A DNA stretch of 63,337 bases, filler included, from Stramenopiles sp. TOSAG23-6 (taxonomy: Eukaryota), in the NCBI GenBank assembly GCA_900128565.1. It is 13 parts of 13 records of this genome, joined end to end, with 100 filler letters (N's around TTAATTAATTAA, not from the genome) between each part and the next. Parts side by side here need not be neighbours in the genome. Positions count along the whole stretch, not along the records: positions 1 to 6,471 come from LT636690.1; positions 6,572 to 13,040 come from LT636691.1; positions 13,141 to 19,606 come from LT636692.1; positions 19,707 to 26,169 come from LT636693.1; positions 26,270 to 32,728 come from LT636694.1; positions 32,829 to 39,281 come from LT636695.1; positions 39,382 to 45,818 come from LT636696.1; positions 45,919 to 52,354 come from LT636697.1; 5 more parts are not named here. The stretch is one strand, 5' to 3'. A program made the position numbers and the translations under genes. Every line of letters begins with the position of its first letter. Positions within the stretch are counted from its first letter, which is position 1. Below, piece by piece: positions 1,111-59,930 of this stretch. Below the pieces are notes generated by a model. That model did no database searches, was not told the DNA's origin, and saw nothing but the letters and a program-made list of their open reading frames with translations.

Positions 1111-4100
1111 TTATTGTACTACAGAGACTATAAACTGTAATGTCGAATACGGCGGAATATCTACAAAATTTGCACCACTTTTTATCCTGGATTTGCCATA
1201 GGCTGCTTTGGATGGGCAGGTAATTTTTCTTTTCCCACCAATTTTCATACACTATAAAGAAAATATTTTTTTGAAATTTTTTTGATTGTTTTTGTTAGGT
1301 ACAAAATTTACTATGAAAAAAAAAAAAAAAAAAAAATTTTTCAAAATATATTTGATATTTTGTTAGGTAAAAAATTAAATTGATGATGAAAACGAACATT
1401 CCTTGAATTCCTATATCCCATCCTTTAATCACTTCACCACGACCTAAGCGAAAACTAAATGGCTTTTTTCCAGATTTGTCAAAGATTTTTCCATTTTCTA
1501 AACGGCCCATGAATTTTTGTATCATATTTTTTAGAAAAAAAAACTGTTAGGTACAAAATTTACTATGAAAAAAAAATTGAAAAAAAAATTGAAAAAAAAA
1601 TTGAAAAAAAAAAACGCACTCATAAGAAACTTTCACTTTTTTCCTATCAATTACTAATGGTCCTTTTCCTATAATGATGTCTTCTGTCATTACACCAAGA
1701 CTCAATTTTTTAGTATTTTTAGTATTTTTAGTATTTTTTGTATTTTTAATATTTTTAATATTTTTTGTATTTTTTGTATTTTTTGTATTTTTACATTGAA
1801 CTTCAATATCATCATCAACATCAGTATTAATTTCGTATTTATCATTCATACGAGATTCCGTACCTAATAATTCTTTTTCGCGTTCCATTTTCTTTCGTTC
1901 TCTTTGACGTCGTTTTTTTTCCTGCTTTTTTTTTCGTTTCAACGAGTCAATCATTTCACCACGTATAAACATAAATCCAATTTCTTTAAGCTCATTACGA
2001 ATTGAATCTGCAGTGATCCAATCTTGAATATCTCTTGCTTTTTGTCTCAAAAGACATAAACGCTTTGCTTCCTGAAGACGAGAGTTTGTATTGTCAACAT
2101 CTACATTTGTTTTTATATTTGTTTTTATATTTATGTTTCTTGATTCTTTCTGAATGGTTGTTGTTTCTTTAGTTGTTGTATTGATATCCTCAGACACATC
2201 AAAATTGTCTTGATTATCATTGTTTGATATAATTCCCATCCAACTGGGCAATGTAGAGACTGACTTTCTTGTTGTAGTTCTATTACATGCACTGTAGCGT
2301 TGTGCGTTTTGTTTTGCTTGTAGTCTTTCCATGGGGGACATGAGCTTCACTTTTTTCCTAGACACCAAACGTCTCACTTGTTTCCTCTTGTAATTATTTT
2401 CTAAATCTTCGTTTTCTGAAAAAAAATAAATCGTACATGCTTTACGAATAGCTTCGCGTTTTTTTTCTTGTTCTTCCATATGCAATAACTCCAACTCTCG
2501 TTGCTCTTCTGCAGCACATTCACTATAAGCAAGTGCAAGGTCAAGTTCTTCAGCATATCGTTGCTTTACAGCTTCTTTTTCTTTTGCTGCTTCATGAATT
2601 AATTCTTTATGCCAATCCCATTCTTTATTTCGATTCATTATTCGTTCTTCAAGAAGTCTTTTCTCAGTTTCATGAAGACATTTTTCANGTAATGCATCGA
2701 CTTTGCGTTCCTTAAGTCTTTGCTCTTCAAGTTGTTCTAACCACACACTATGCTGTTTTTTTGCCATATCCATTCTACGTTTGCGCAATTCATTTTCATC
2801 TTCTTCTGCTTTCTTTGCAGCAATTTTCAAACGCGAAAATTCTTCAGCTAATTCTAATTCAATATCCTGTTTTCTTTTTTGTGCTTTAACATCCGCTAAA
2901 GCCCACAACTTCTCTCTATTAATTTGTGTTTGTTGAGCGTTTAAATTATGTTGGTGAATAGTGTTGAGAAGTTCCAATTCTTTTTCTCGTAGATCTTGAC
3001 GCTCTTTTTTCATCATCTTTGCATTTTGCTCTGCCTGTTTTAGTCGAATTTCGATTTGTTTTAAAGATTCCTCAGATTTCTTTTGTTGTTTCTTCATATT
3101 CGATTCATGTTGGACAATAGATTGTTTGTGTATTTCAAGTGCAATCTCTTTTTCCTTTTGCCATGCTCGTTCTTCTTCCATTAAATCAGATTCTGCAGCT
3201 GCACAATTTATCTCACCTTGACGAATGAGTTCACATTGATTATCATGCCTACGCTGTTGGTCTCTAGCTTTAAACAATTCAAGTTCTTCAAATGCTTTCT
3301 GTGTTACCTTTTTTTCACGCTCTCGCGCGATTTCTCTTTTTCGCATATTCGATTTAGCTCGTTCTTTAGATTCTTCATGAGCCCTCGCTGCTTTTATCTC
3401 CTGAAGTTTTTGCATTTCCATCCATTCCGTATGCATCTCTTCCTCCCTTTTCTTCTCTTTTTGACGGAGTTTTTCCATTTCATTGTCCCATTTCAGTAAA
3501 CGCTTCTTTTCATTATCGTGAGCAATGACACTTGAACGTTGAAAGCATTCTTCTCGCTCTAAATAATACTTCTTCATCCTCTCCCGTCTGCGTCCACGTT
3601 CAGCCTCTACATCACGTTCACGACGACGTTCGGCGAGAGCTTCTTTTTCTAACTTTTCCATTTTAGTTGCATGTGCATGTCTTTTTCTATATTTTGTAGA
3701 AATATTTCAAAAAAAATTCAATTTTTTTTTTATAAATTTGTTAGGTACAAAATGTTTTTACCAAAAAAAAAAAAAATAAATTCGAAATTGAAAAACGTAC
3801 AATGATTCTTTTCTGTCCAATGCTATTTGTTTGAGTCGTTCTTTTCGAGCTTGACGTTCTCGGTTTGCTGAACTATTATGTATTATGAAAAAATATTTTT
3901 TCCATTCAAATATCTCGTTAGATTCAAAATGCTTTACAAAAAAACAAAAAACAAATAATTTTGAAAACGTACATTTTTGTATGCGACTTCAAGTTTTTTC
4001 TTGGCTTTTTCTAATTCAATTTCTCTGATTTCTTTCCTTCTCAAAAGTTGTTCTGAAAGTTTTGCTTTCCGTTCTTTAATTATGATTTTATTTCGTTTTA

Positions 4101-5421
4101 ATTTCATTTTTTTAATTTCAGATTTGATTTCACTGTACACTACATCATTCTCATTATCATGTTTTACTTTTATTTCTTTGGATTTTGAAAATTTTGAAAT
4201 GTTTTCTTCATTCTTTACTTTTGATATATTATTAGATGTTTTCGTAACTACCACAGTTTCTAAAGGACTTCGAGGAATTGGTGTCGTTGAAAGACTCTTT
4301 TTCATTACATGGGTAGGAGATTGTATTCCATAGGAAGCTGAGGGAGGTTCATTTGATGAAGTTTTATGTTGTGTATCACTCGAACTACCATTATATCGAC
4401 GCATATCATGACAATACCAAGACACAAAATCACATTTTCTCCGCCTTTCAGGATTATGAGCAAAGAGCGATGGCATTGAAGATACGTATGGTGGAGTTTC
4501 ACACGGATTTTTCTTTGTTTTTCCTATTTTTTTTCTGTTTTGTGTCACCGGAGAGCGAGAGCGTTGACGAAGGCATTTGACCCACTCTCGTTGTTGTTTT
4601 GCAAGTTGCGGCCTTTCTGAAATATGCCGTGGACTTCGCTTTGGTGAAAGTGAACGAGATTGTATTTTACAAGGTGATCTTGGCTGGGGTGTACTACAAA
4701 CATTAGTTTCTTCACTCCAAGTACTATTCGATTTTGGATCACTCATACAATTTTCTTCAAGATGTGAAATATGAAAACTATCGCAACTTTTACTACGAAT
4801 TCTTGGATGTTTTTTTCTATTCATTAGACTACTCCTTCCACGTTGCTTTTGTCGGACAGCAGCCATTTCTCTACGGTACCAACGTCGTTTCACTTGCTCT
4901 CGACTAAGTCTATATTGTTCTTCACATTTGTTTTGATTGCTCGAAATTCGTTGGCTTGAGTTCCATTCTGGTTTAGTTGTGTTATAATGTAGATGCATAT
5001 CATCCCAAGAATACTCATCATGAAGTTTGGATATTCTTGGGGCAAATATAATACTATTACTTTGTCCGACTAAAGCTAGGGAATCTTCGTCAAAATGATG
5101 GGCGTCGGCAACAGGGTGTACATCTTGAGTTATCACCTTATTAGAGTTTGATTTATTTCCGATCTCCTGAGATGATTCTGATACTGATACTTCACTTGTA
5201 TCTTGGTTTGGTAAGGGATCCACATCGGGTGTTGTGGTAAAAGATACGTCATCGGTAGTTGCTACAAACGTGCGAAGAACTTGTGGTTCTAAATTAACAA
5301 TGTGAGTTACTTCACCTTCGCTAAAGAAATCTTCATCGACTGCGTACTTAGCTTCACTCGAGGGTGACATTTTCCCACCTATATCAGACGAATTCTTCCC
5401 AGGCACACTCTCCGGCTCCAT
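1111..5421 (-). CDS. Multi-exon gene: disordered N-terminus, long coiled coil, CysRS-C-like helix and C-terminal FKBP-type PPIase domain (may be two genes joined near 2416-2436)
   Basis: Exons 5421-3973, 3877-3801, 3686-1620, 1508-1398, 1246-1111 join in frame. FKBP motifs [49 protein letters not shown] and IPPYSTLQF are restored only after intron removal. Confidence 0.75.
1247..1397 (-). other. Intron, GT-AT, 151 nt, two branch-like motifs
   Basis: gga at|GTTCGTTTTC...TAGTGTAT|g aaa restores FKBP QGMKIGGKR; the AG 5 nt upstream gives an immediate stop. Confidence 0.85.
1509..1619 (-). other. Intron, GT-AT, 111 nt
   Basis: tat ga|GTGCGTTTT...AAATTCAT|g ggc restores FKBP SYEGRLENG. Confidence 0.85.
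3687..3800 (-). other. Intron, GT-AG, 114 nt, same family
   Basis: tca tt|GTACGTTTTT...TACAAAATATAG|a aaa aga in frame; AG sits where siblings have AT. Confidence 0.8.
3878..3972 (-). other. Intron, GT-AT, 95 nt
   Basis: aaa aat|GTACGTTTTCA...CATAATACAT|aat agt tca continues the coiled-coil frame. Confidence 0.8.
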
Positions 5422-5710
5422 TATATACTAGGGCTAATCCCTTATAATGAAGCAAACACTTGCCTTCTTATTAGATATTATGAGATTGAGAGAGATTTGA
5501 GATAAATTATATAGATAGAATCTTCGTAGATATTTTTCATATTTTTCTTTTGAATTCAGAATTTTGGAAATCTGTAGCCGCGAATTTCGAATTTATTTCG
5601 CGTTTTTGGGTTCGGTAAAATTTAGAAATTTAACGGAGGAGCAAAATTAGCATCCTTCGGATAATAATATATGTGAATCCAGAAAATTTAAATTATTTGT
5701 GGACCAAAGA

Positions 5711-6418
5711 ATGCAGCTATTTATTGCATGCACCTTTGCTGTGGCAGCATGTGGTGTATCAAGCTATACAATAAAGCAACACTTGCAAAACTACACTCAA
5801 CCAAGGTATCAAATCTATATATGTCGTATTATCATGATGGTTCCAATATATTCTGTTCAAGCACTACTGTCAATGTTGATGCCTGCTTTATCACCTTTCT
5901 TAAATACGGTGAGGGATATTTACGAAGCATACGTAATATATATGTTCTTCACTCTACTAATTGCATATCTTGGGGGTGAAGATTGTCTTATAGACTATCT
6001 GGAATTAAAGTCTTACATGCGTCATCCTTCCCCGTTTAGAAAATGTTTCGATAACATTGTTCTTGGTCGTCATTTCCTCCAGAAAGTGAAAGAAGGAACT
6101 CTTCAGTTTGTGTGCGTACGTCCAATGACTGGTCTTTTAGCTTTTTTCTTACAATGGCTTGGTCTTTACTCCAAAGAAGACTGGTCGCTCACAAATGGTC
6201 ATTTTTGGCTGAGTTTAGTGAACAATATTTCTATATCACTTTCATTGTATTCTCTTGTACTTTTCTACCGAGCAACTGAAATTCGTTTAAAGCCTTTTCG
6301 ACCGTTGTCGAAATTTATTGTCATCAAATCCGTAGTATTTTTTTCATATTGGCAAGGACTCTTGTTATCTATTCTGGTACAATGTGGTTTTATAACCGAT
6401 GACACAATCTTGGATAGT
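5711..6418 (+). CDS. TMEM184 / organic solute transporter alpha family protein, 3' partial
   Basis: HLQNYTQPRYQIYICRIIMMVPIYS, RDIYEAYVIYMFF and KFIVIKSVVFFSYWQG motifs; donor GTATGT at 6419, then contig end. Confidence 0.9.
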
Positions 6419-6471
6419 GTATGTTTTATATGAATTTCTAATTTAATTTTTTTTTTCATACGAAATTTCGT

Positions 6472-6571
6472 NNNNNNNNNNNNNNNNNNNNNNNNNNNNN
6501 NNNNNNNNNNNNNNNTTAATTAATTAANNNNNNNNNNNNNNNNNNNNNNNNNNNNNNNNNNNNNNNNNNNN
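6472..6571. other. Artificial contig linker (N...TTAATTAATTAA...N), repeated at each contig join
   Basis: Identical 100-nt spacer with stops in all frames, also at about 13041, 19607, 26170, 32729, 39282, 45819, 52355, 58891, 60003, 61115 and 62226. Confidence 0.97.
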
Positions 6572-6626: not shown

Positions 6627-7243
6627 ATACGTATAAAAACTTGGAGGAGAATCACAACCAACTTTAAGCATGGCATCTCTATGAATAAAAAGTTTCTTTT
6701 CCAACGAGTTTTCATGGATTATGAAAAAATATTTCAAAATTTTCTAAAAAAAAAATTGTTAGGTACAAAATTTTTTTACCAAAAAAAAAAAATATTTACA
6801 CAAAAAATTGAAATGAAAATTGTTAGGTACAAAATTTACTATGAAAAAAAAATAAATTCAAAATTGAAATGAAAACGTATAGCAATGTCTAAACCAATTA
6901 AGGAATTTAATGTGGAACATGTTCCTTCTTTTTTGTTGAAGCTTCGACGCGCGAAAGATTTTTTGGATGGATTATTTATTTCTACATCAAGTAAGGAATC
7001 AAATGCGGAACATTGTACGTCATAAGCAAATTTAGGTGTATCGAAGCTATCTCTAAGGGGATAAAAAGGTCTCAATGCGGAAACGGAAGAAAATTGAGAG
7101 TTACATTGAAAGTCAAATGTTGCCCTATGTACCGGTGTGTTCGGGCTCGATAATCCGTTACAAGGACTAGGGGAAAATATTTGAGCCTCCAAAGAGAAAA
7201 GAGGGCGAGTTATCGAAAGCGGCTCAATTTTCACTTCTTCCAT
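6627..7243 (-). CDS. Hypothetical protein, 3' partial (exons 7243-6881, 6713-6627)
   Basis: Two ORFs joined in frame by a family intron; next donor GTATGT at 6626. Confidence 0.55.
6714..6880 (-). other. Intron, AT-AT, 167 nt, duplicated branch core
   Basis: att gct|ATACGTTTTCA...TTCATAATCCAT|gaa aac tcg in frame. Confidence 0.7.
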
Positions 7244-7632: not shown

Positions 7633-9455
7633 ATGAAATCTCGGGAAAATGAGGACGAGCTCCGCTTCTCTTTAGGAGAGAAATTATCTAGTCTTTTTCT
7701 TCCAGTTTCTCAGAAGCCACACACTTACCAGCAACAATATATGGACAAAGAAATGAGAAAAAAAAATGTTCACAATAGAATAAGAAATAGTTCTGAAGAA
7801 AATATGCCCACTATGTCTGGGAAAATGATGTATAAACAATTGAGTAGGGATGTTGAATATATTAGTCCTATCCAATCTATCAAACCAAAATATCAAATAG
7901 AAAAAAATAATGCTACAGAGACACTTTCTCAACCAATATTACATGATTCGCATGGTAGTGTCGAATTAACGACTAGCTCTACAACTGAAACAAAAGATGA
8001 GAATAATATGACTGAAACAAAATATGAAAATACTACAATCATGAATAATGAAGCTCAGAACCTTAAATCTTCAGAATGTATACATAAAGATGAGATACAA
8101 CGCCATTTACCTCCTAGACAAAAAAATGAAAAACTTATACGCAGTAGTACACACGAAAAAATGAAATTGAAGAAATATTCAGATTTATCTTTACAGTTTC
8201 AAAATTTAAATTCTCGTGTACACAATATTACTCTTGGATCTCCTTTAGCTGGTTGGGATGTCGTGGGAGATACAATTGAGGAGTATAATAATTGGAATGA
8301 TTTACCATATGTAGGAATTGGTGAACAACTATCAAGTATATATATGCAGAATATTACTCCTAACCCTAACCCTAATAAAGAATCAGAGACTGTACAAATG
8401 AGTAAAGATGTACATAAAAAAAATAAAAAAAAATACACTACAAATAATAATAAAAGTAAAGCCAAATTTAAAAGAAGTCTTAACCCTAACAATAAAACTA
8501 AACCAAAATGCACAAGAAAAATTAAAAGAAATATTAAAACAAAACCAAAAATTAAAAGAGACACTGTCAAGAAGAACAAAAGAACAAATTTTAGAACAAA
8601 ATATAAACCGATTTTACATCCAAATAATACACGAATAGAGAAAAAAAGTCAAATAAGTCATACACATAACTCGAATGATACAAATCCACAGAATAAATGT
8701 ATTACAATAAAAAATAACCCTAACACTGACATTGAAACGATAAATTCTAACAGAAGATCTAATATGACAAAAGTAGACATTGACATGTCTGCATCACCAT
8801 CGTCAAGACTAAGAGCAATATCAAAGAGAAAAGAAACATCACCTAGATTTAGTGGTGGTGGGGTCCGACCTTCAGCAGTTCACAAATGGGGATCTCATTC
8901 AGGTACACAAAAAGAAACAGTGAATATGTACGTTTTCATGATGAATTTAATTTTTTTGTTTTAAATTTTCGTACGAAATTCCGTGCCTAACAATTTTTTT
9001 TCTAAAATATTTTTTCACAATACATTTCGAATAGATTGAATATAAAAGAAAGATCAGTGCAAACAGCTAGAGGTCGAATTCGTTTTCATTCAGAAAATTC
9101 AAACATAGCAGGAATATCCGGTATAAAATCTCTGAGAAAAAGAAAGGCAAAAAAAGTAGAAATAGTAAAAAAGAGACCTCAAAGTGCTGTAGCTGTATTA
9201 TCAAATAATGCATCGAAAAATGATGCCAAACATCATTCTGATAGAAAAAGAGTAGCCATGTCCAAAAGATTAGATGAATCAATTTCAAGATGGAAAGAAA
9301 GATATATAAGAAGAAGACAAAACGATGGAAAAAGCACGAGTACAACTCCAGATTTTTCGAAAAATGTAGAAAATACGAAACGCGTACCAGTATCGAATCA
9401 TTTTATTGGATTTTCAGTGTTTTCAATTTCAGATCGACAAAAAAACAACCGTTAA
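7633..9455 (+). CDS. Lys/Asn-rich low-complexity hypothetical protein, 2 exons
   Basis: ORFs 7609-8964 and 9036-9455 joined in frame by intron 8928-9025. Confidence 0.6.
8928..9025 (+). other. Intron, GT-AT, 98 nt (an in-frame AG 9 nt downstream is an alternative)
   Basis: aat at|GTACGTTTTCA...CACAATACAT|t tcg. Confidence 0.7.
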
Positions 9456-10586: not shown

Positions 10587-12300
10587 ATGTGGGCTGCATT
10601 TGCTTGCCCTAAAGAAGCTGACCCGTCTTCACGCTTTCGTAAGTGCCGTAATAAAAAGCATTCTCGAATAGAGCGAAAGCGAACAGCACAACAAATAGCT
10701 ATGGAGCATCAAGTATTAACTGAACAAAACGCCATTATTCAAGAAATTGGTCGCGATACTCGAGCAAATTGGGATTATAGACACGCTGGTGATGCTGGAA
10801 TTAGAGGAAAGAAAACGAAAATACGTTTTCGTGCCTGGGGTGAGTTTGAAGCTGCCACTAAAAGATTGCAACGCGCCAACTCTAGTCTTGGCAAGGATTT
10901 CACTGGCCCCGACCCTGGGACATATCATATCCAACAATTCCCTGGTCCACATCCTTGTTCAAATGTAAAGTTTCAAAAATATCCAGGTATCTGTAAGGAA
11001 CGTCGAATGTGTAGTTTAAATTCAGAAATTGGTCAAAAAAGCAAACAGCTTTTGTATACCTATGGTGGTACCGTACAAGATTTTACTCCAGGACCAAATC
11101 AAGCTCCTAAAAAATCATCGATAGGTCATCAAGTCCTATCTACATATAAAAATGCGCCAAGGATATGCTGTCGAGGAAAACCTAAAACTGAAAAATCAAG
11201 TGCCGAATATAGTGAAAGTAATTTCAAATGTTCTCCTTCATCATTATTTGGTCAGCAACTTTTATCAGACTTTCCATCCGCTGGAAGATATACATTTGGG
11301 ATGTTACGTGGAAATGGGGCTTTAGATGTTCGGTCTGATATGTTACAGGTTCCACATACATATGCAAAACATATGACGGATGAAAATGTGAAAAATAGAG
11401 TCGTAGATAAATTGTACGATCCGGATGAACATGTACGTTTTTCATCAACCCTAACCCTAATCAAACCTAACTCTACTTTCAAATTTTAATTTTTTTTTTT
11501 TTGCGAAATTGTGTCATGAATTTCANNNNNNNNNNNNNNNNNNNNNNNNNNNNNNNNNNNNAAATGTATTGTTCAAATGTATTGTTCAAATTTGCTTTCA
11601 TTCGTAATAAAAAAAAACATTTCAATTATTTTCAATAATACTCACAAATTCCAAATTGTATTCATATTTTTTCACAATTCATGGAATAGGCGGTCACGTA
11701 TGTTTTTCTATTTTTTACCAATTTCGAATTTTTTTTTTTATACGGAATGTTGTACCTAACGTTTTTTTTTTTTGAAAAAAATATTTTTTCACTGCACATG
11801 CTTTTTCCATGTCAAAAGAAACAAGACATATGAATAAAGTTATTAATCCAAGATATATTGACGATGCAGCTGTTGGATCGTATAACCTCAGTATTTCTAT
11901 GGGGTATGTTTTCAACTTTTCATTTCAATTTTTTACCTACATTTATTTTTTCATAGGAAATTTTAATACCAAACGTCTTTTTTTCTTTTTTTGTAATATT
12001 TTTTTACATTACGAAAGCCAGGCAGAGAGTCACAAGGCAAATGCTCCTCAATACTCATTATCAAAACAAAAACGTCCGATGAATAATAGTAAAGCAAATA
12101 TGACATCTGGTCCTGGACCTTTAAAATATTCTCCAAATTACAAATCGGTATTGCCAAACAAAAGAATACCAAAATTAGCTTCTAGACCACATAGGCCACC
12201 AATTGGTCACAAGAATTTGTATGAAATGAAACAATACAAATCTAGAAGTGTATCTGATATTCATTTTCTTCAGAATAGATTAACAGGGTATATAAAGTGA
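10587..12300 (+). CDS. SHIPPO-repeat (ODF3-like) flagellar protein, multi-exon, spans a scaffold gap
   Basis: PGP/PGxY repeats and GxQxxS motifs; donor at 11433, 15-nt microexon 11683-11697, introns 11698-11799 and 11904-12014. Confidence 0.6.
11698..11799 (+). other. Intron, GT-AT, 102 nt
   Basis: ggt cac|GTATGTTTTT...TCACTGCACAT|gct ttt tcc atg in frame. Confidence 0.75.
11904..12014 (+). other. Intron, probably GT-GA, 111 nt (an in-frame AG 3 nt downstream is possible)
   Basis: atg gg|GTATGTTTTCA...TACATTACGA|a agc cag gives SMGSQAES, matching the protein's GxQxxS repeat. Confidence 0.5.
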
Positions 12301-39787: not shown

Positions 39788-39894
39788 AAATAAAGAAAAA
39801 CATGTCATTTGAACTCTTTTGTTTATTATTTTCATCATACATTTCATTATTTTTGGTAGTACATTTTTGAAAAATTACATATTTTTTAATCTTT

Positions 39895-48293: not shown

Positions 48294-48713
48294 AATACCT
48301 TTGAGAGTGTACTGTTGGGTTGGTCTAAGTTAAAATCAAAATCTTTGGATGATCACAGATCAGATCTTCAAACAAAATGTAAGACAATTCGGATTCTCTC
48401 AAACCTCTCAAACGTTTGACTACTGGATTTTTATGACCGTTTCATCCTTTTCAGTTNCTTTTTTTTTTNCTTTTTTTTTTTCAGACTGAGTCTCCGACGA
48501 CCTCACATACAATTATCAATCTTAAGTCTTGACTTGTGTGTTTTGCATCAACGAAAGAGACGACACATTCTTAAACTAAAAGAATATTCACAAGTCTATT
48601 AGGACCTATACATATATATATACAGAATCTGGAACTTTGAACGGTTCTACCACTTATTAAAGTGTTATAGAATAAAGTTAACTTCAGAACCCTAACCCTA
48701 AACATATAGTAGA

Positions 48714-48956
48714 ATGTCTAGCGACTCTAGTCAGAAAAGTATCTTAAATGCTGAAAGTCTTGAGGCCCTGAACAAGCAAGTTGAAGAAATGCAAACATCA
48801 GATAAAGAGTGGATACACTACCACCCTGACTTGGAAAAAGTTATATCTTTATTTGTCAAAAACGTCCTGAGAGAGCAGCCGGAAAACATCAAAGATTTTG
48901 CAGTCGAATTTTTCACGAGTGAGAATCTAAAGAGCATGGTCAAGAATTCTCCTTAA
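48714..48956 (+). CDS. RIIa / Dpy-30-type dimerisation-docking domain protein (RIIAD1-like)
   Basis: HPDLEKVISLFVKNVLREQPENIKDFAVEFFT. Confidence 0.8.
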   Translation: MSSDSSQKSILNAESLEALNKQVEEMQTSDKEWIHYHPDLEKVISLFVKNVLREQPENIKDFAVEFFTSENLKSMVKNSP

Positions 48957-49101
48957 ATATTTTTGAAATAAATTCTTTTAGATACCTATGGATTCTTTTA
49001 TATACCTTGTTACATTTTTATTACTTTCTCATTAAGAATTCTCATACTATTTCTACGGATTTCTACGAGACACCCCAGGGTTATACTATTTCTACGAGAC
49101 A

Positions 49102-49144
49102 CCCTAAACCCTAACCCTAACCCCTAACCCTAGTACCCTAACCC
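49102..49144 (+). repeat. Interstitial telomere-like (CCCTAA)n cluster
   Basis: accctaaaccctaaccctaacccctaaccctagtaccctaaccc. Confidence 0.8.
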
Positions 49145-49417
49145 AAACAATACAAAAATTGGGAAAAATAAAAAAACAATACAAAAATTGGGAAAAATAA
49201 AAAAAAATTGATATAAATATGGAAGTAATGAACTAATGAATACAAATGAAAAATTTTTAATCTACACTTGAGAAAATACAAAATTACTAGTAGTATAAAA
49301 AACAGTGGGTATAGAGAACATTTCAAGGTTTTTTTTTTTATTGTTACGTGTCTTTATCTGTACACTGTGAGATTCCGTACCATTTTTTTGTATTTAAACG
49401 TGAAACACTACTTCTTA

Positions 49418-49795
49418 TCAACTCCAGGCTGACATTGTTTCGTGTTTATAGCCCTTCCCAATGGTGTTCGATGTCTCGGCGATTTTTTGCCCTGTAGGTT
49501 CTGTTTCCAAAACGTCAGGGGGTCCTGAGCCTCCTGTCGAAGTTGTTCTTTTTTTCCATTTCGGAGCGTCAGATTCCACCGAGTCAAAATTGTGATTTGA
49601 TTTTCTCATTATCATTATGATTACTACATTCCACAATGTTGAGAATACTAAAGTTGAAAATATAATTGCTAAAGAAGTTATTACTGGGCAATACTGTGTC
49701 CCGCACGATCCACTTTCGAAGTCACTCTTTTTTATGGCCATTTGTATCAACTCTCGAAGTCTAATTTCTTTCTCTTCGTTTGAGCACGTCGACAT
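49418..49795 (-). CDS. Small single-TM hypothetical protein
   Basis: Central hydrophobic helix. Confidence 0.5.
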   Translation of the reverse strand: MSTCSNEEKEIRLRELIQMAIKKSDFESGSCGTQYCPVITSLAIIFSTLVFSTLWNVVIIMIMRKSNHNFDSVESDAPKWKKRTTSTGGSGPPDVLETEPTGQKIAETSNTIGKGYKHETMSAWS

Positions 49796-49980
49796 ACTGT
49801 TGCGTAAGTTTACTCAAAATATGTCCAACTGTCTCTATGGTGTTCGACAGATATTAATGCACTGTATATAAGATGAAGGATAGAAATGGGAATCTCTTTT
49901 TTTATCAATAAAATAGAGGTAGTACCGTATACACACAACTTTTAAAGAAAACTTTCGGTTGCGGTTGCTCCTCTATTTTT

Positions 49981-49994
49981 AAACCCTAACCCTA
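49981..49994. promoter_or_regulatory. Telo-box-like element in a divergent promoter
   Basis: AAACCCTAACCCTA between divergent genes. Confidence 0.45.
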
Positions 49995-50213
49995 GCTAGT
50001 AGCTTTTACGTCAATAAACTAGTAGTCTGATATATTTTGATGACGCGCACAGAAAACGTTCATTTTTCGATTTGTCAATCGACACAAACTCCACGGGAGA
50101 TCGATCCATCGAATGGGAATAATTGCATTCATAAACATTTGATCATTTTCTAGATTTATAGTTGATTTCACCTTGCGTATTTTCAAAGTCATTGCATAAA
50201 GCATACTTTGATC

Positions 50214-51873
50214 ATGGCAGTCAATTCATCGCCAGCCAGTTCTATAAAACTTCGGAACGACGTATTACTTTTGATCAAATATCAGTCGAAGCGCTTCCAT
50301 GAGCAGCTTACAAAGCTTGGAAAATTAACTACAGATAATAATAAGATTCAACGTTCGTTGAGCGGTGCGACATTTGACAATAGTGTTTTGAATGTTTTTT
50401 CTACAACGTCGTCGTCTTCTCTATTAAGTAAAAGCAAAACTCAGAAGAAGAGAGTCACTGCCGAATCGAAAAAGTCGACCGTAAATGTGAAAAAAACTAA
50501 CTCTAATAATAGTAATAAGGGTCCAATGAAACGCAAAGAGGAACTTACATGTTTGTTACAGAGACAGGGCAAGAAACCTTTTGTAAATTTAAAAAAAATG
50601 GGTCAGTTTATTCAATTCATAGATGAACCAGATAGAGTCGCAAACAATTTTATGGAAGCAGCTCTCGTCGCACTTTTTCATTCACCACAACCACAACTTG
50701 AAGATTTTTGTGGACGCTTAGGTATGAAGCGTTTAGCCGCTATATTAACATTTTATGGTACGTGTGAAGAAGAAAGATTCAACGAAAAAATTCCATCAAA
50801 TGTTTTGAAAATCATCGACAAAATTATGTCCTCTGAGATTGATCTTCATAAAATCAAAAAGTACGGAAGTGCTGCAAAAGTAATTGGCACATATTATACA
50901 ACTGATGTGAATCAAAGTCGTGTGAGTACTTCTTTGAGAAAGCAAGCAGATAGAATTCTTAAGAAGCTTATAGACATTAAAACTTTAGATAAGGAGAAAA
51001 AAGCAGAAGCGAAAGCTAAAGAATTAAGAAAAATTGAGGAAAGAAAGAAAAAAAAAGAGAGGAAAAGAAAAATAAAGGAAGCAGAGAGAGAAGAAAATGA
51101 AAAGATCAAGAAACGTAAAGTAGATAAATCTCTATTAACACAAAATCAGAAAATGGATACACTGCCAGGGTTAGGGTTAGGAGGTAGTGAATCTCTCAAT
51201 GCGATGAACGTTCAGGACATGGATCTTTCTGTTGAAACGAAATCGTCAAATAGTAAATCTGCGAGTAACAGTCAATCGTCTACACCAATGGCTTTGCAAT
51301 CTATTGACAGAAATACAAACAATACTCAAAATACTCAAAATACTCAAAATAATAAAAGATCTGTTCGATGGGCCGATGAGCATGGGGGAGAATTGGAAGC
51401 AGTAAAAACATTTGAAAAAGAAAACAAAGACGATGCACCGGGTACTCCGGTTCCTGAAATGGAATCTAAGCGTGATTGGAATGGAAAAAAAGTTATTTCT
51501 TTGAGTAAAAAAGAACAGGGGCTTCGAATGAGACGACAAGAAAATATCTTTAATAATCAGTTAATACGTTGGAGAGAGCCTCCGAAAATCATACCTTGTC
51601 AATTTGAATATACAGATACCAATCAAGAGCAAGACACTCCGTATGATGAATTCGGTTCGAATAGTACAGAACGAATAAAATTATCAAACTCAGAGGATTT
51701 GCATACTCCTGAGGTTGGAGCGAGAATACCAGACAATCCATCAAATCATATAGTAATAGAGAGTGCACTGTCAGGTCCAAATAAGTATGAGTGCAAAGAA
51801 ACAAAGTTTAGCAAATACGTAACAGAACCACAACAGAATCAATATCAACCACCACAACAAAATCGTTATCAGC

Positions 51874-51905
<32 letters not shown>

Positions 51906-52046
51906 ACTGGTTATCAATCACAGCAAAGTTATTACCGACCACAACAACAAAATTATTATCAGCAACAACAACAACCAAGGTATGATCAAGGATACAGTAA
52001 TCAGCAACAGTATTCATATAATAATCAAAATAATAGACAGTATTAA
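50214..52046 (+). CDS. PNUTS/PPP1R10-like PP1-binding nuclear protein with a Q/Y-rich tail
   Basis: TFIIS-N-like helical region, RVxW-type motif KRSVRWAD, IRWREPP and poly-Q C-terminus. Confidence 0.6.
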
Positions 52047-52454
52047 TAACAAAACAAGTTTCGTTGAATTGAATAAATGAATTAAGTTCTATAGAAAGAT
52101 GATGAAAAAATATTTCAAAAAAAAACGTTAGGTACAACATTTCGTACGAAAAAATAAATTCGAATTTGAAATGAAAACGTGATGCTCATATTTTTTGTTC
52201 GCTACAAAATTTTCATAATAAAAGAAATGCTACACAAAAATACACGAGTTTCATTGATATAAAGAGTGAAACAATTTCCATAATTCACTTATAAAAAACA
52301 AAATTTTAATTACATTTCATTTATAATGTTATATGTTAACTAAGATCAAATCCTNNNNNNNNNNNNNNNNNNNNNNNNNNNNNNNNNNNNNNNNNNNNTT
52401 AATTAATTAANNNNNNNNNNNNNNNNNNNNNNNNNNNNNNNNNNNNNNNNNNNN

Positions 52455-55400
52455 TGAATATGTAGCAAATGAAGCTTCGGGAAAACACATTGTACGACGG
52501 CTAGAAAAAAATAAGAAGAATACAAATACATTGAAGAAGAAAGACAACAAGAGTAAGGTTCGGGTAGAGCATAAAAATGGTAATGTGAAAACAAATCTTG
52601 ATCACAGTTTCATATCTGGAGTTGAGGTTGAACGCAGTGACATCACTAACTGTATTCAGCATATAAATAGGGCAACTGATGATTGGAAATTTAAAATTGA
52701 GCAGATACAAAAGTTGACACATTTTGTGAAGCGAAGTGAAGAACATCCAGAATTGTGGACAAAAAAAATATTAGTTCGTGTTATCAGTCCTTTACTAATT
52801 TCACAAGTACGCGATCTACGTTCAACTGTAGTACGCGCCACATGTGATTTGATAAATGCAATTATGGAAATTCTAAAGGCAAAAGCACGATTTATACTTC
52901 GAGAACTGTTTCCAGTAATATTTGATATTGTAGGGAGTGGTAACTCTGTAATTGCGGACTATGCGCGAAATTCGTGTGTTTCTGTAGTAAAGCATGTACA
53001 TGCTACAATAACATTACTCTGCATTTCAAATATGGCAACATCATCTAAAAATTGTTCAATTCGTCTTCAAGCGATAGAATTATTTCATATTGTAATTAAT
53101 ACATGGGAATATTCAAAGATCAATTCTCAGGCACAACTTTTACAAAATACATTACAGGTAGCACTTGATGACGTATCTGGTGAAGTTCGTAAAAAAGCAA
53201 GACGATATTTTGTAAAGTACAGCAATCTTTTCCCTCAAAGAGCTGATAATATATGTACGTTTTATATGAATTTCTAATTTAATTTTTTTTCATACGGAAT
53301 TTCGTACCTAACGATTTTAATTTTTGAAATATGTTTTCATAATATATGCCGCATGGTCACAGGTCGCACTGCGAGATTACTAGATAAAATGAGTATAAAA
53401 TCTTTACAATTAGGCTTAAAAGATGACAAATTTCCTCCAAACATTCCAAATAATAATTTACTTGAGCCTCCTAAGCGTCTTTTAGCTTCAAAAAATAATG
53501 ATCTTGAATGTAGTGAGAAGACTTCAAGTAAAGATAAAAATCTTTCAATAAAAGGTGAAACATTTACTGACAAAAATGGATATAAAAAGAATAATTCAAT
53601 AAAAGGTGAAACATTTACTGACAAAAATGGATATAAAAAGAATAGTTCAAGTTCGATTAATTTTATCCGACGACTTGGAAAACAAATACAAATTGCACAC
53701 AAATTACATATTGAAGATATGATTTGTTCACTAGGTAAAGAATTGAAACTTATGGAGGATTTTGAGGAAAAAATGAAGATGGAAGGAGAAAATTTCATTG
53801 ACGGAGAAAAAAAAATACATGGCGATGTTGTTGCATATGCAATTGAAATGACAAAACGCTTAGAAACACGTCAAATGATGAATGAAATTTCCGGCAATGC
53901 GTTGAGGAAGCTAGCTTCGGAAACAATACGATTGGGAACAACTTCATCATCTTTATAATGGAAACTTTATAAAATGGCTTTAACCACAAGTACAAGGTTT
54001 CAATTTTTGAAATGAAAAATAAAATTTAAATATTTTTTTTGATACGAAATTCCGTACCTAACATTTTTTTTGTCTACTTTTTATTTATGTTTCCGTCGAG
54101 AATAACCATTCAGTGGAGCTTTATCTATATAGTTGAGTCGCAGAGCTTCAGATAGGTGCGAAGAAAATAGGCCTTTTTGTCTAGCATGTACTGTGAAGAA
54201 ATTATAGAAAACAGAAAATTCGTTAAGTACGCAATTTCCTATGAAAAAAAAAGATTTGAAATGAAAGATGAAAAGTGAAATTTTTTTTTTTTAATTTGTT
54301 AGGTACGGAATTTCGTACTAAAAAAAAACTAAATTCGAAAAATTGAAAAAAATAAACGTACATGTATTTTCAGTAATTTCTTTTCTTCCTCCGAAACTAA
54401 ATGTCCAGAATACGCCAAGTCTTCTTGCATTGCCGTTTTGTGTGGATCTGATCCTCGAAGAATGAAGAGCGAATTTGCCATATTTGTGGAGGACATTCCA
54501 TGCGGTACTCCTGACACTGTTTTACGTGTTTGCTGAGCGAGGTTTTTTCGTTTATTGTATATGTCACGAGATCTATGTTTTATATAATATTTCCCCCTTT
54601 TTTTTTTATTCTTTTTTGTCATTGATAACTTTGCTTTTATTTCTTCCAGTTCTGCAGTTAGTTGGTTGCGTCTAATGTTTAACTCATCCACATCAACAAC
54701 TTTTTGTCTTGTATCCTCCACATCAAAAATCTTCTGGTTGTCCGCCATGGGCGGCTCACCTGGACTATCTGATTTATGTTCTATTTCATGGGGATATGCT
54801 CCATGTACACGCTGTGGGTGTAAAAACATAATACCTTTGAGAGTGTACTGTTGGGTTGGTCTAAGTTAAAATCAAAATCTTTGGATGATCACAGATCAGA
54901 TCTTCAAACAAAATGTAAGACAATTCGGATTCTCTCAAACCTCTCAAACGTTTGACTACTGGATTTTTATGACCGTTTCATCCTTTTCAGTTNCTTTTTT
55001 TTTTTCTTTTTTTTTTTCAGACTGAGTCTCCGACGACCTCACATACAATTATCAATCTTAAGTCTTGACTTGTGTGTTTTGCATCAACGAAAGAGACGAC
55101 ACATTCTTAAACTAAAAGAATATTCACAAGTCTATTAGGACCTATACATATATATATACAGAATCTGGAACTTTGAACGGTTCTACCACTTATTAAAGTG
55201 TTATAGAATAAAGTTAACTTCAGAACCCTAACCCTAAACATATAGTAGAATGTCTAGCGACTCTAGTCAGAAAAGTATCTTAAATGCTGAAAGTCTTGAG
55301 GCCCTGAACAAGCAAGTTGAAGAAATGCAAACATCAGATAAAGAGTGGATACACTACCACCCTGACTTGGAAAAAGTTATATCTTTATTTGTCAAAAACG

Positions 55401-58400
55401 TCCTGAGAGAGCAGCCGGAAAACATCAAAGATTTTGCAGTCGAATTTTTCACGAGTGAGAATCTAAAGAGCATGGTCAAGAATTCTCCTTAAATATTTTT
55501 GAAATAAATTCTTTTAGATACCTATGGATTCTTTTATATACCTTGTTACATTTTTATTACTTTCTCATTAAGAATTCTCATACTATTTCTACGGATTTCT
55601 ACGAGACACCCCAGGGTTATACTATTTCTACGAGACACCCTAAACCCTAACCCTAACCCCTAACCCTAGTACCCTAACCCAAACAATACAAAAATTGGGA
55701 AAAATAAAAAAACAATACAAAAATTGGGAAAAATAAAAAAAAATTGATATAAATATGGAAGTAATGAACTAATGAATACAAATGAAAAATTTTTAATCTA
55801 CACTTGAGAAAATACAAAATTACTAGTAGTATAAAAAACAGTGGGTATAGAGAACATTTCAAGGTTTTTTTTTTTATTGTTACGTGTCTTTATCTGTACA
55901 CTGTGAGATTCCGTACCATTTTTTTGTATTTAAACGTGAAACACTACTTCTTATCAACTCCAGGCTGACATTGTTTCGTGTTTATAGCCCTTCCCAATGG
56001 TGTTCGATGTCTCGGCGATTTTTTGCCCTGTAGGTTCTGTTTCCAAAACGTCAGGGGGTCCTGAGCCTCCTGTCGAAGTTGTTCTTTTTTTCCATTTCGG
56101 AGCGTCAGATTCCACCGAGTCAAAATTGTGATTTGATTTTCTCATTATCATTATGATTACTACATTCCACAATGTTGAGAATACTAAAGTTGAAAATATA
56201 ATTGCTAAAGAAGTTATTACTGGGCAATACTGTGTCCCGCACGATCCACTTTCGAAGTCACTCTTTTTTATGGCCATTTGTATCAACTCTCGAAGTCTAA
56301 TTTCTTTCTCTTCGTTTGAGCACGTCGACATACTGTTGCGTAAGTTTACTCAAAATATGTCCAACTGTCTCTATGGTGTTCGACAGATATTAATGCACTG
56401 TATATAAGATGAAGGATAGAAATGGGAATCTCTTTTTTTATCAATAAAATAGAGGTAGTACCGTATACACACAACTTTTAAAGAAAACTTTCGGTTGCGG
56501 TTGCTCCTCTATTTTTAAACCCTAACCCTAGCTAGTAGCTTTTACGTCAATAAACTAGTAGTCTGATATATTTTGATGACGCGCACAGAAAACGTTCATT
56601 TTTCGATTTGTCAATCGACACAAACTCCACGGGAGATCGATCCATCGAATGGGAATAATTGCATTCATAAACATTTGATCATTTTCTAGATTTATAGTTG
56701 ATTTCACCTTGCGTATTTTCAAAGTCATTGCATAAAGCATACTTTGATCATGGCAGTCAATTCATCGCCAGCCAGTTCTATAAAACTTCGGAACGACGTA
56801 TTACTTTTGATCAAATATCAGTCGAAGCGCTTCCATGAGCAGCTTACAAAGCTTGGAAAATTAACTACAGATAATAATAAGATTCAACGTTCGTTGAGCG
56901 GTGCGACATTTGACAATAGTGTTTTGAATGTTTTTTCTACAACGTCGTCGTCTTCTCTATTAAGTAAAAGCAAAACTCAGAAGAAGAGAGTCACTGCCGA
57001 ATCGAAAAAGTCGACCGTAAATGTGAAAAAAACTAACTCTAATAATAGTAATAAGGGTCCAATGAAACGCAAAGAGGAACTTACATGTTTGTTACAGAGA
57101 CAGGGCAAGAAACCTTTTGTAAATTTAAAAAAAATGGGTCAGTTTATTCAATTCATAGATGAACCAGATAGAGTCGCAAACAATTTTATGGAAGCAGCTC
57201 TCGTCGCACTTTTTCATTCACCACAACCACAACTTGAAGATTTTTGTGGACGCTTAGGTATGAAGCGTTTAGCCGCTATATTAACATTTTATGGTACGTG
57301 TGAAGAAGAAAGATTCAACGAAAAAATTCCATCAAATGTTTTGAAAATCATCGACAAAATTATGTCCTCTGAGATTGATCTTCATAAAATCAAAAAGTAC
57401 GGAAGTGCTGCAAAAGTAATTGGCACATATTATACAACTGATGTGAATCAAAGTCGTGTGAGTACTTCTTTGAGAAAGCAAGCAGATAGAATTCTTAAGA
57501 AGCTTATAGACATTAAAACTTTAGATAAGGAGAAAAAAGCAGAAGCGAAAGCTAAAGAATTAAGAAAAATTGAGGAAAGAAAGAAAAAAAAAGAGAGGAA
57601 AAGAAAAATAAAGGAAGCAGAGAGAGAAGAAAATGAAAAGATCAAGAAACGTAAAGTAGATAAATCTCTATTAACACAAAATCAGAAAATGGATACACTG
57701 CCAGGGTTAGGGTTAGGAGGTAGTGAATCTCTCAATGCGATGAACGTTCAGGACATGGATCTTTCTGTTGAAACGAAATCGTCAAATAGTAAATCTGCGA
57801 GTAACAGTCAATCGTCTACACCAATGGCTTTGCAATCTATTGACAGAAATACAAACAATACTCAAAATACTCAAAATACTCAAAATAATAAAAGATCTGT
57901 TCGATGGGCCGATGAGCATGGGGGAGAATTGGAAGCAGTAAAAACATTTGAAAAAGAAAACAAAGACGATGCACCGGGTACTCCGGTTCCTGAAATGGAA
58001 TCTAAGCGTGATTGGAATGGAAAAAAAGTTATTTCTTTGAGTAAAAAAGAACAGGGGCTTCGAATGAGACGACAAGAAAATATCTTTAATAATCAGTTAA
58101 TACGTTGGAGAGAGCCTCCGAAAATCATACCTTGTCAATTTGAATATACAGATACCAATCAAGAGCAAGACACTCCGTATGATGAATTCGGTTCGAATAG
58201 TACAGAACGAATAAAATTATCAAACTCAGAGGATTTGCATACTCCTGAGGTTGGAGCGAGAATACCAGACAATCCATCAAATCATATAGTAATAGAGAGT
58301 GCACTGTCAGGTCCAAATAAGTATGAGTGCAAAGAAACAAAGTTTAGCAAATACGTAACAGAACCACAACAGAATCAATATCAACCACCACAACAAAATC

Positions 58401-58409
58401 GTTATCAGC

Positions 58410-58441
<32 letters not shown>

Positions 58442-58890
58442 ACTGGTTATCAATCACAGCAAAGTTATTACCGACCACAACAACAAAATTATTATCAGCA
58501 ACAACAACAACCAAGGTATGATCAAGGATACAGTAATCAGCAACAGTATTCATATAATAATCAAAATAATAGACAGTATTAATAACAAAACAAGTTTCGT
58601 TGAATTGAATAAATGAATTAAGTTCTATAGAAAGATGATGAAAAAATATTTCAAAAAAAAACGTTAGGTACAACATTTCGTACGAAAAAATAAATTCGAA
58701 TTTGAAATGAAAACGTGATGCTCATATTTTTTGTTCGCTACAAAATTTTCATAATAAAAGAAATGCTACACAAAAATACACGAGTTTCATTGATATAAAG
58801 AGTGAAACAATTTCCATAATTCACTTATAAAAAACAAAATTTTAATTACATTTCATTTATAATGTTATATGTTAACTAAGATCAAATCCT
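52455..58890 (+). repeat. Duplicate contig of 45919-52354 (offset 6536), with copies of the CLASP-like, RIIa, TM and PNUTS-like genes
   Basis: Same ORF set at +6536, same contig ends and a shared N position. Confidence 0.97.
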
Positions 58891-59061
58891 NNNNNNNNNN
58901 NNNNNNNNNNNNNNNNNNNNNNNNNNNNNNNNNNTTAATTAATTAANNNNNNNNNNNNNNNNNNNNNNNNNNNNNNNNNNNNNNNNNNNNTTTTTTTTTT
59001 TTTACGAAATGTTGTACCTAAAAATTTTTTTTTTTTTTTTAAATATTTCATCAAAATACAT

Positions 59062-59930
59062 GTATTTTTGATAATATTTTTAGTGAACAATTTTTACAGT
59101 TTTTAGATGAGCTAGAGAGACGATTACCAACAGCTCCAAAGTTAAAACCGACGTGTACGTTTCCCCCTAACCCTAACATTTTTTATTATTCAGTTGAAAT
59201 ATTTTTTTTAAAATTTTTTTTAAATTTTTTTTTCAAATTTTTTTTTCAAATTTTTTTTTCAAATTCTTTTTTCATAGTAAATTTTGTACCTAACAATGTT
59301 TTTTAATTTTGACATTTTGTTTCACCTACCATGTTCGCATAGAAAATATTATTGTGATTCGACGGCACCTCCTTCTATATTATCACCAAAGTTCTCACTA
59401 AACACACTAGAAGGACACAATAACCCTAACCCTACATATACATCGATTCGTAGTTATATACAATTTTGTATAGAAAAAGTTGTAAAAAGTCAAGAATTTC
59501 AAAAAAAAAATTTTAGGTACGGAATTTCGTATGAAAAAAACAAATTTCAAAATGAAGCTTTGCCTCATATGCGATTTTTACATTATGATCAAATTGGAGG
59601 AAGCTTATCTCCTCATATTGATTTAAATAGAACAAATAGTGATGGTCGTACATCAACGCATACGTTTATTTTATACCTAACCACGTGTCAATATGTACGG
59701 TATCATTATGAATTTAAAATTTTTAAACATTTTGAAATTTTGAAATTTTGAAAAAAAAACTTTTTCAAAATTTAAATTTTTTTTTTTTTTTTTTTTCATG
59801 CAAAAAAAATTTTAATTTTATTTTTTTTTTTTTTTTTCAAATACTCTTTTTACAGTACAGGGAGGTGAAACTGCTCTACTCAAAGATTTAAATGGTACAA
59901 TTTTACCAAATGGAAAGGTACAACCAGTAG
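59062..59930 (+). CDS. 2OG-Fe(II) oxygenase superfamily protein, partial, multi-exon
   Basis: MRFLHY..GGSLSPHIDL (HxD) and STHTFILYLT.CQY|GGETALL. Confidence 0.75.
59155..59332 (+). other. Intron, GT-AT, 178 nt
   Basis: acg t|GTACGTTTCC...CACCTACCAT|gt tcg cat gives KPTCSHRKYYCD. Confidence 0.7.
59695..59860 (+). other. Intron, GT-AG, 166 nt
   Basis: caa tat|GTACGG...TACAGTACAG|gga ggt gaa act restores GGET; a -2 shift makes TAG. Confidence 0.8.

Follow-up and report, generated by a model that had tools for sequence, protein, structure and literature searches.

The AG that closes an intron is among the most conserved signals of eukaryotic gene expression. In this study, we have analysed a stretch of 63,337 nt (hereafter the window) from the assembly of Stramenopiles sp. 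TOSAG23-6, the genes of which are interrupted by short AT-rich inserts that mostly end in AT. Our results point to one introner-like family of spliceosome-type introns with a YAT acceptor that dominates the genes of this marine stramenopile-type protist; introners are intron-generating transposable elements known from Micromonas, Aureococcus, dinoflagellates and others (Gozashti et al., 2022, PMC9860276; Gozashti et al., 2025, PMC12130899; both taken in excerpt). We consider it probable that the inserts are true introns which leave the transcript as RNA, most likely through the major (U2-type) spliceosome, and that all of them stem from one amplified introner-like element of about 100 nt.

The family is AT-rich, about 100 nt long, and can be written as [G/A]TAYGTTTT … CGTACGAAATTTTGTACCTAAC … T-run … CACAATACAT. 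The word TTGTACCTAAC, with up to two mismatches, occurs 77 times in the window, against 17.4 expected and a maximum of 28 in 100 shuffles. A family profile, built from an alignment of 17 copies and used at a cut-off of E<1e-3, gives 57 matches in the window, of which 47 are unique once a duplicated contig and one inverted arm are removed; this amounts to about 0.9 copies per kb of unique sequence. The profile matches and the word enrichment confirm what a preliminary description of this DNA had proposed, namely that unrelated genes are interrupted by a single family of AT-rich inserts. Complete copies number 31, of which 25 were delimited by extrapolation from the profile register, five by coordinates and one (14330-14434) by direct reading. 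The 25 profile-register copies are 92-176 nt long with 19% GC; they start with GT (21), AT (3) or GG (1) and end with AT (19), AG (2), TT (2), GA (1) or AA (1). Four of the five coordinate-fixed copies are GT-AT and one is GT-AG, the longest measuring 178 nt. Taken together, the 31 copies start with GT in 27 cases, AT in three and GG in one, never with AG (0/31), and they end with AT in 24, AG in three, TT in two, AA in one and GA in one, which reproduces exactly the tally first reported; a terminal AG is absent from 28 of the 31.

Conservation by position, computed over the 25 profile-register copies, shows the anatomy of these introns. The upstream exon has A at -2 in 17 and T at -1 in 20 copies, and a pyrimidine at -3 in only 8. 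At the intron start we found G (22) or A (3) at +1, T at +2 (24), A at +3 (25), C (16) or T (8) at +4, G at +5 (24) and T at +6 (25), positions +6 to +8 being T in 24-25 copies; a GTRNGT-like 5' splice site of U2-type introns is thus present. The body that follows is variable and A/T-rich, with subfamily blocks, up to a 16-nt near-palindrome, GTACGAAATTTTGTAC (a 6-bp hairpin), which precedes the branch motif TACCTAAC with its CTAAC core. Each of the 25 copies has a CTAAC-type branch motif, at a distance of 27-54 nt from its 3' end. One further copy, 32580-32728 (+), which is cut by the contig end, has TACTAAC in place of TACCTAAC before the usual 3' block, so the extra C of the branch motif is not obligatory. 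The 3' part consists, in order, of AAATAT, a T-tract (T at -15 to -12 in 23-25 copies) and C-A-(C/A)-A-A-T-A-(C/T)-A-T. The last five positions are T at -5 (24), A at -4 (24), C (18) or T (6) at -3, A at -2 (22) and T at -1 (21), giving the acceptor triplet YAT in 20 of 25, and the downstream exon begins with G in 15. In seven copies, AG dinucleotides between the branch motif and the used end are passed over.

The yeast-like donor (GTAYGT) and branch (CTAAC) signals of the preliminary description are therefore found in this conservation analysis. Its interpretation is thereby supported in part; the claim that the lineage has lost the requirement for a 3' AG goes too far, given that AG closes three of the 31 copies and that a strict 3' motif is kept (pyrimidine at -3 in 24/25). 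What departs from U2-type introns is the terminal dinucleotide, AG in 3/31 against AT in 24/31. RNA folding of eight introns gave z-scores of -1.19 to +0.42 relative to shuffled sequences, and the intron ends were unpaired in every minimum-energy structure.

Evidence from RNA concerns one contig of the window, 26270-32728, and comes from three poly(A) metatranscriptome runs of one study, together with one independent seawater DNA run. Two small runs of one sample ("organism A") contain 0.89-0.90 of the sampled words of this contig, and seawater metagenomes and poly(A) metatranscriptomes contain it in part; stretches of it that lack RNA cover are neutral evidence. Four copies (27507-27611, 27665-27767, 27896-28015 and 28095-28197) are precisely absent from poly(A) RNA contigs. 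In RNA contig X8 record 25, position 27893 is followed directly by 28014, and 28093 directly by 28197; the second of these joints is also seen in X5 record 13. X7 record 19 reads 27401-27506, then 52 letters, then 27767-27861, and X5 record 12 also stops at 27506. There is in addition a half-junction at the copy 27234-27342, where the match of RNA contig X7 record 18 breaks off at 27231 and 50 more letters follow. An AG acceptor is possible at none of the four junctions, and the sole register that they share starts at the [G/A] of [G/A]TAYGT. Because only this register fits all four, the GT...AT register is supported and a general AT-AC reading is excluded. The four precise junctions, from three runs of the one study, thus bear out both the removal from RNA at non-AG ends and the GT...AT register that had been read from DNA. 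A systematic consensus error at the terminal base, raised at the outset as a possible cause, is not supported: DNA contig X3 record 4 (26308-27337), which has parts of two elements at its ends and the exon between them, agrees with the window at 26335, the terminal T of the first copy.

Hosts confirmed by Pfam are FKBP, NYN, reduced folate carrier (SLC19-type), CLASP_N, Ost-alpha/TMEM184, VTT, RNase T2, folate-receptor/NPC1_N and WD40. FKBP, SLC19, NYN and CLASP had already been named, and these names stand; the names SLC26 and 2OG oxygenase were not confirmed, and gene 24430-26169 has two large exons without a Pfam match. When the copies are cut out in the profile register, the longest open frames on either side come into phase in 20 of 25 cases, where chance would give about 8; this analysis is blind to register when both intron ends shift together. 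The same holds for four of the five coordinate-fixed copies, and the misses mostly adjoin short exons. At FKBP intron 1247-1397, a 36-aa exon covers FKBP_C profile positions 17-54 and the next exon 56-93, position 55 falling on the split codon; as judged by this alignment, it is confirmed that the predicted join neither gains nor loses a residue. The flanking open frames are longer on the strand of the element in 19 of 25 copies, and with the frame restored in 20 of 25 this upholds the sense-only orientation noticed before. In the Ost-alpha/TMEM184 gene, 5651-6471 (+), the exon runs up to the start of a family copy located at the end of the contig. The gene model for it, P0001, starts at an internal Met, and the Pfam match begins about 40 residues upstream (there is a Met at residue 21 of the open reading frame, ORF).

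Beyond what had been described, we found that the inserts are one highly repeated introner-like family. Many similar intron copies lie in unrelated genes, which is one of the features of introners. The median pairwise identity of the 25 copies is 69%, and the best pairs, at 89-92%, are in different contigs. Nine of 24 contig ends fall inside family copies, as would be expected if a high-copy repeat interrupts assembly. In seawater DNA, the three deepest of the bins that contain an element have depths of 18,858-29,901, and single-copy bins a depth of 5.5, which points to thousands of copies, the depths being sums over all organisms in the sample. Two degenerate core-only fragments, at 19974-20023 and 20189-20255, lie outside long ORFs and hint weakly at copies in non-coding sequence. 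A 6-bp terminal palindrome, AT/GTAT...ATAC/AT, is the only inverted repeat, and a Pfam scan of 40 long ORFs turned up no transposase domain. A search of public metagenome contigs for more family copies with an exact 20-mer gave 0 matches. With a 16-mer there were at least 119 matches in at least 118 stretches, all scoring 30 or less against the consensus of about 100 nt; the 12 best of them had no family context, and we took these matches as chance. A scan of ORF gaps for introns outside the family gave 221 candidate gaps, mostly spurious in such AT-rich DNA, and was set aside.

Several observations limit the reading of the inserts as spliced introns derived from an introner-like element. Evidence for a target-site duplication is not significant (identical exon-end and intron-end dinucleotides in 15/30, 13.4 expected, P 0.21), nor is pairing between exon end and intron end (complementary ends in 19/30, 16.2 expected, P 0.10). 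The RNA support consists of assembled contigs giving four junctions and one half-junction, in one gene and from a single study, and the downstream edge of the AT-TT intron 27507-27611 was deduced from the length of an unlisted 52-nt piece. Of the 31 copies, 14 give the same mRNA in the GT-AT register and in one shifted by -2, mostly AT-AC. The depth of RNA run X7 is about 8,000 over an element and 2-3 in the neighbouring exons, and X5 record 13 retains part of an unspliced copy beside its spliced joint. Much of the RNA signal may thus be unspliced transcript or DNA carry-over, and the extreme depth over elements suggests abundant unspliced RNA, stable excised introns or DNA carry-over.

On the reading that we prefer, each copy brings its own splicing signals: the donor [G/A]TAYGTTTT, a small hairpin followed by TACCTAAC, a T-tract and the terminal motif CA(C/A)AATA(C/T)AT. 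Cleavage after that terminal motif would give the acceptor YAT rather than YAG, keeping the pyrimidine at -3 and the A at -2, with U instead of G as the last base. Removal would be performed by the spliceosome, and we favour the major one because of the donor, the branch motif, the T-tract, the sense-only placement and the absence of structure. The second-step or 3'-site recognition factors of the lineage would then accept U at -1, and the 3' site would probably be read from the terminal motif of the element itself. U(-1) might form a pair with the purine (G or A) at +1, which would then stand in for the canonical contact between two Gs; a purine-U contact of this kind is compatible with our data, since all three A-starting copies and 22 of the 28 G-starting copies end in T. 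The family may have spread by transposition or reverse splicing. A wider proposal, which we advance tentatively and with the balance of our judgement somewhat against it, is that of a lineage-wide shift from YAG to YAU in abundant marine heterotrophic stramenopiles, with almost all introns, numbering in the thousands, derived from one introner that supplied its donor, branch hairpin and 3' motif, and a G/A(+1)-U(-1) pair taking the place of the universal G-G in the second catalytic step. If a lineage-wide YAU rule were true, co-evolved 3'-site factors would be needed, and published gene sets would be systematically truncated.

Other explanations have to be weighed against these, and each is contradicted by at least one test here. 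The shared sequence might simply be strong lineage-wide splicing signals laid over old introns, as in Ostreococcus and hemiascomycete yeasts, with no recent amplification. This would fit the lack of significance of the target-site duplication and terminal inverted repeat evidence and the lack of a transposase among the 40 long ORFs scanned; presence/absence polymorphism was not seen either, though no test aimed at it was made. We nevertheless regard it as unlikely, since the similarity spans the whole of about 100 nt and so takes in segments to which no role in splicing is known to belong, identity reaches 89-92% in the best pairs, which come from different contigs, subfamilies have distinct internal blocks and the copies break the assembly. 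If instead the true boundaries lay two bases to the left, the family would consist of U2-type AT-AC introns (ATGTAY...ATAC), and GT-AT would be an artefact of the AT repeated at the junctions. The upstream exon does end in AT in 17 of 30 cases, and 10 of the 14 copies in which a -2 shift leaves the mRNA unchanged then read AT-AC. We find this decidedly improbable, as none of the four introns with RNA support allows AT-AC (three do not permit the shift, and the remaining one would become AT-AT), one of these introns is unambiguously AT-TT, and the frame is restored in register 0 also by copies that follow an exon with an end other than AT.

Two further alternatives dispense with the spliceosome. 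Paired intron ends could guide an endonuclease and ligase, or some other route, as has been proposed for euglenid, hemistasiid-diplonemid and Amoebophrya introns, and the non-canonical termini and the short terminal palindrome AT/GTAT...ATAC/AT would suit such a mechanism. That the introns fold no better than shuffled sequences and never pair their ends makes it very improbable, as do the strong donor, branch motif and T-tract, which the compared systems are without in the excerpts of PMC12621601 and PMC7789003. Finally, the elements could be absent from the transcribed DNA, either eliminated like the internal eliminated sequences of ciliates or missing from the strains that supplied the RNA. 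Repeated AT does flank about half of the elements, and the RNA and DNA come from different environmental samples. We find this hardly credible: the sense orientation, seen in the flanking frames (19/25) and in the frame restoration, is not predicted by a process at the DNA level, a single gene would need to be polymorphic at its four junctions at once, the elements are present in independent DNA contigs, and there is no precise-deletion joint among the listed joints of the DNA run (183 further joints are unlisted).

Non-canonical introns of the tunicate Fritillaria were reportedly described by Henriet et al. in 2019, and it is in this genus that the YAT family has its closest precedent. The published texts cited here and in the next two paragraphs are represented by excerpts, and what we say of them is limited to these. 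AT-ending introns as a majority class have a precedent there, 3' AT being the commonest intron end in Fritillaria pellucida (44%) and F. borealis (34%) (Soo et al., 2026, PMC13326754). Fritillaria introns close with a YAY triplet, often have YAY before the 5' site as well, and have divergent U2AF paralogues that bind the non-canonical ends; duplication of U2AF and changes in N6-methyladenosine of small nuclear RNA (snRNA) were shown (PMC13326754). In both systems 3' AT is commonest and a U-rich tract is kept; in Fritillaria the core spliceosome is thought responsible and an introner-type transposon origin is discussed. The 3' end of our family matches the YAY pattern (pyrimidine at -3 in 24/25, A at -2 in 22/25, T at -1 in 21/25), and the upstream YAY is only partly matched (8/25, 17/25 and 20/25, respectively). 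The main Fritillaria classes start with AG (AG/AC, AG/AT) and are highly diverse, with no strong donor in the excerpt (PMC13326754), in contrast to the near-invariant GTAYGT donor, explicit branch motif, single dominant family and protist host found here, where a 5' AG is seen in 0/31 copies.

Introners are said to have been the subject of Huff et al. in 2016. Like them, the family consists of similar short AT-rich copies in unrelated genes of an aquatic protist, many per gene, which carry or recruit splice sites. Unlike the introners described in these excerpts, 28 of 31 copies lack AG, no autonomous partner is seen and the target-site duplication test is not significant. Published surveys, which worked from annotated introns, report GY-AG families with rare GC or GA donors, and kept mainly non-canonical families only if these were confirmed by transcripts (PMC9860276; PMC12130899).

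Among protists, Amoebophrya has mostly non-canonical introns with no preferred terminal dinucleotides, and U1 was not detected, according to the excerpt (Farhat et al., 2021, PMC7789003); its introns have inverted repeats of 8-20 nt that form hairpins, and direct repeats of 3-5 nt (PMC7789003). Our organism resembles it as a marine protist with mostly non-canonical introns in repeated introner-like families, and differs in its uniform termini, its strong donor and the lack of a hairpin that brings the ends together. Euglenid and hemistasiid introns have variable, G/C-rich ends with extensive pairing, and YTRAY in 2.4-6.8% (Thakur et al., 2025, PMC12621601). There too a majority of introns is without GT-AG, and an origin from miniature inverted-repeat transposable elements has been proposed; the introns studied here are by contrast AT-rich and unstructured, with CTAAC in nearly every copy. 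We dropped a diplonemid host from consideration on the protein matches and on the differing non-canonical introns of diplonemids.

Better-known intron classes differ in other ways. U12 introns have the donor /RTATCCTT and a branch site, TCCTTAAC, some 10-20 nt from the 3' end. They and U2-type AT-AC introns share with our family the tolerance of a non-AG 3' end, and 3 of 31 copies here start with AT. The U12-type signals are absent, as was noticed before: there is no /RTATCCTT donor, positions +4 to +6 are Y-G-T and not T-C-C, and 27-54 nt separate the branch motif from the 3' end; the final base, moreover, is T where AT-AC introns have C. Hemiascomycete yeast introns follow the scheme GTATGT ... 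TACTAAC ... YAG, the YAG being required. The near-invariant GTAYGT donor, the TAC(C)TAAC branch motif and the long distance from branch to acceptor are alike, and the differences are YAT in 20/25 copies and the origin of the copies in one repeat family at about 0.9 per kb. Unlike the internal eliminated sequences of ciliates, the copies lie in the sense orientation of coding frames, with no precise deletion among the DNA joints listed. In the open literature (subscription-only papers were outside the scope) we found no description of a GT-AT intron family in marine stramenopiles (MAST) or other protists, nor, among the papers listed, any mention of introners in connection with MAST or uncultured stramenopiles, and the literature searched mentions "GT-AT" introns only incidentally, in animals and plants. 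The main texts of three MAST genome papers, supplements being outside the scope, describe no unusual introns: the word "intron" occurs twice in PMC5778133, both times in the methods, and never in PMC8163842 or PMC12614181.

The identity of the host can be approached through its proteins. The folate-carrier exon 40628-41797 (-) is identical, bar one gap of 28 residues, to the EukProt entry "GSMAST32.ASY1.ANO1.1869.1", the label of which, read as a label alone, points to a MAST-3-type marine stramenopile. The Ost-alpha protein of the window is likewise the same as a EukProt entry, and its best named relatives are Platysulcus tardus (a stramenopile, 54%) and Vitrella (an alveolate, 48%); similarity of this kind would place the organism only loosely. 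The folate-carrier gene model P0034 (40584-41797, -) is instructive in another respect. Its last 19 residues are translated from intron 40584-40685 up to the TAA that lies within the branch motif, from which it follows that the existing annotation missed the family introns. The 28-residue gap corresponds to an in-frame GT-AG "intron" of 84 nt without family features, and both the read-through and the 84-nt removal look like annotation artefacts. No candidate was found for intron read-through peptides in public protein predictions.

Known escapes from the AG rule (euglenozoans, Amoebophrya, Fritillaria) are messy: their termini are of many kinds, and a donor or branch often cannot be recognised. 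The system described here is clean, in that donor and branch are of textbook form, one family dominates and the acceptor differs by a single base, YAT for YAG. It thereby makes testable which parts of 3'-site recognition (U2AF35-type factors, Prp8/Slu7/Prp18, the +1/-1 pair) must change for U(-1). It also bears on how introners reshape genomes, a single family here supplying about one intron per kb. For such genomes, the number of genes, the estimated completeness and any "pseudogene" calls may need to be re-examined with models of AT-ending introns.

The copies are listed in Table 1, with alternative termini where several registers give the same mRNA.

Table 1. Complete family introns in the window, with one example of the conserved core
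Feature	Position	Strand	Length (nt)	Termini and remarks
FKBP intron 2	1247-1397	-	151	two branch motifs; options AT-GT, TG-TA, GT-AT, TT-TG, none AG
FKBP intron 1	1509-1619	-	111	GT-AT (or TG-TG); joins 355- and 70-codon frames in phase
Family intron	3687-3800	-	114	GT-AG, register unambiguous
Family intron	3878-3972	-	95	GT-AT (AT-AC, TG-CA equally possible)
Family intron	6714-6880	-	167	two branch motifs; AT-AT (or TA-CA)
Family intron	8928-9025	+	98	GT-AT; 445- and 142-codon frames joined in phase
Family intron	11698-11799	+	102	GT-AT; longest open frames do not confirm phase
Family intron	11904-12014	+	111	GT-GA, register unambiguous
Diverged family intron	14330-14434	+	105	GT-AT; 5' GTTTGTTTTCAT; profile E 0.0011; in frame between two long ORFs
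NYN-domain gene intron	17420-17517	-	98	GT-AT (or TG-CA)
Family intron	19157-19251	-	95	GT-AA; upstream exon end also AA
Family intron, 5' end 4 nt shorter	25009-25112	+	104	GG-AT, TG-TA, GA-TG; 193- and 133-codon frames in phase
Family intron	25490-25595	+	106	GT-AT
Family intron	25666-25768	+	103	GT-AT (also AT-AC, TG-CA, TA-TG)
Family intron	25910-26010	+	101	GT-AT
Family intron, diverged 5' half	27234-27342	+	109	options GT-AT, TG-GA, AT-AG
RNA-supported intron	27507-27611	+	105	AT-TT, sole register
RNA-supported intron	27665-27767	+	103	GT-AT, TG-CA, TA-TG, AC-GT
RNA-supported intron	27896-28015	+	120	GT-AT, TG-TA, AT-AT
RNA-supported intron	28095-28197	+	103	GT-TT, TG-TT, TA-TG
Family intron	29685-29798	-	114	GT-AT; 364- and 281-codon frames joined in phase
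Family intron	31670-31776	+	107	GT-AT
Family intron	31966-32081	+	116	GT-AT
Family intron	39634-39725	+	92	GT-AT; unused AG 18 nt before end; mirror copy is profile match 45474-45568
Family intron	39978-40085	-	108	GT-AT
Family intron	40315-40441	-	127	GT-AG; 3' ...ACAGTACAG
Folate-carrier gene intron	40584-40685	-	102	AT-AT (or TA-CA)
CLASP_N gene intron	46719-46811	+	93	GT-AT; identical copy in duplicate contig is profile match 53252-53351
Family intron	47650-47825	-	176	two branch motifs; GT-AT
Family intron	59155-59332	+	178	GT-AT
Family intron	59695-59860	+	166	GT-AG
Conserved core example	25704-25725	+		16-nt near-palindrome GTACGAAATTTTGTAC (6-bp hairpin in folds) running into TACCTAAC

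The window is not a single locus. It consists of 13 single-cell-type contigs of one fragmented assembly, sorted by size (nine measure about 6.4 kb and the other four about 1 kb) and separated by spacers of the form N44-TTAATTAATTAA-N44, as at 6472-6571, and distances or synteny across these spacers are meaningless. Unique sequence amounts to about 53 kb, with a GC content of 26-41% in 2-kb windows. Contigs 45919-52354 and 52455-58890 are identical but for one N (at 48469, against T), so that the same sequence is present twice in the assembly. In contig 39382-45818, the arms 39382-41545 and 43655-45818 form a perfect inverted repeat of 2,164 nt around a unique centre of 2,109 nt, which doubles four intron copies; this is typical of a chimera of whole-genome amplification, the alternative being a real inverted duplication. 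The search for RNA genes in the window gave 0 Rfam matches at gathering thresholds, and hence no snRNA there. At about 940-990 (-), two tandem TTAGGG units (TTAGGGTTAGGGTTT) form a telomere-like sequence that adjoins a weak branch-like motif. Imperfect tandem repeats with a unit of 9-10 nt (TTTTTAGTA / TTTTTTGTA, + strand) occupy 1689-1818; they lie inside a long minus-strand ORF upstream of the FKBP domain and are low-complexity coding sequence.

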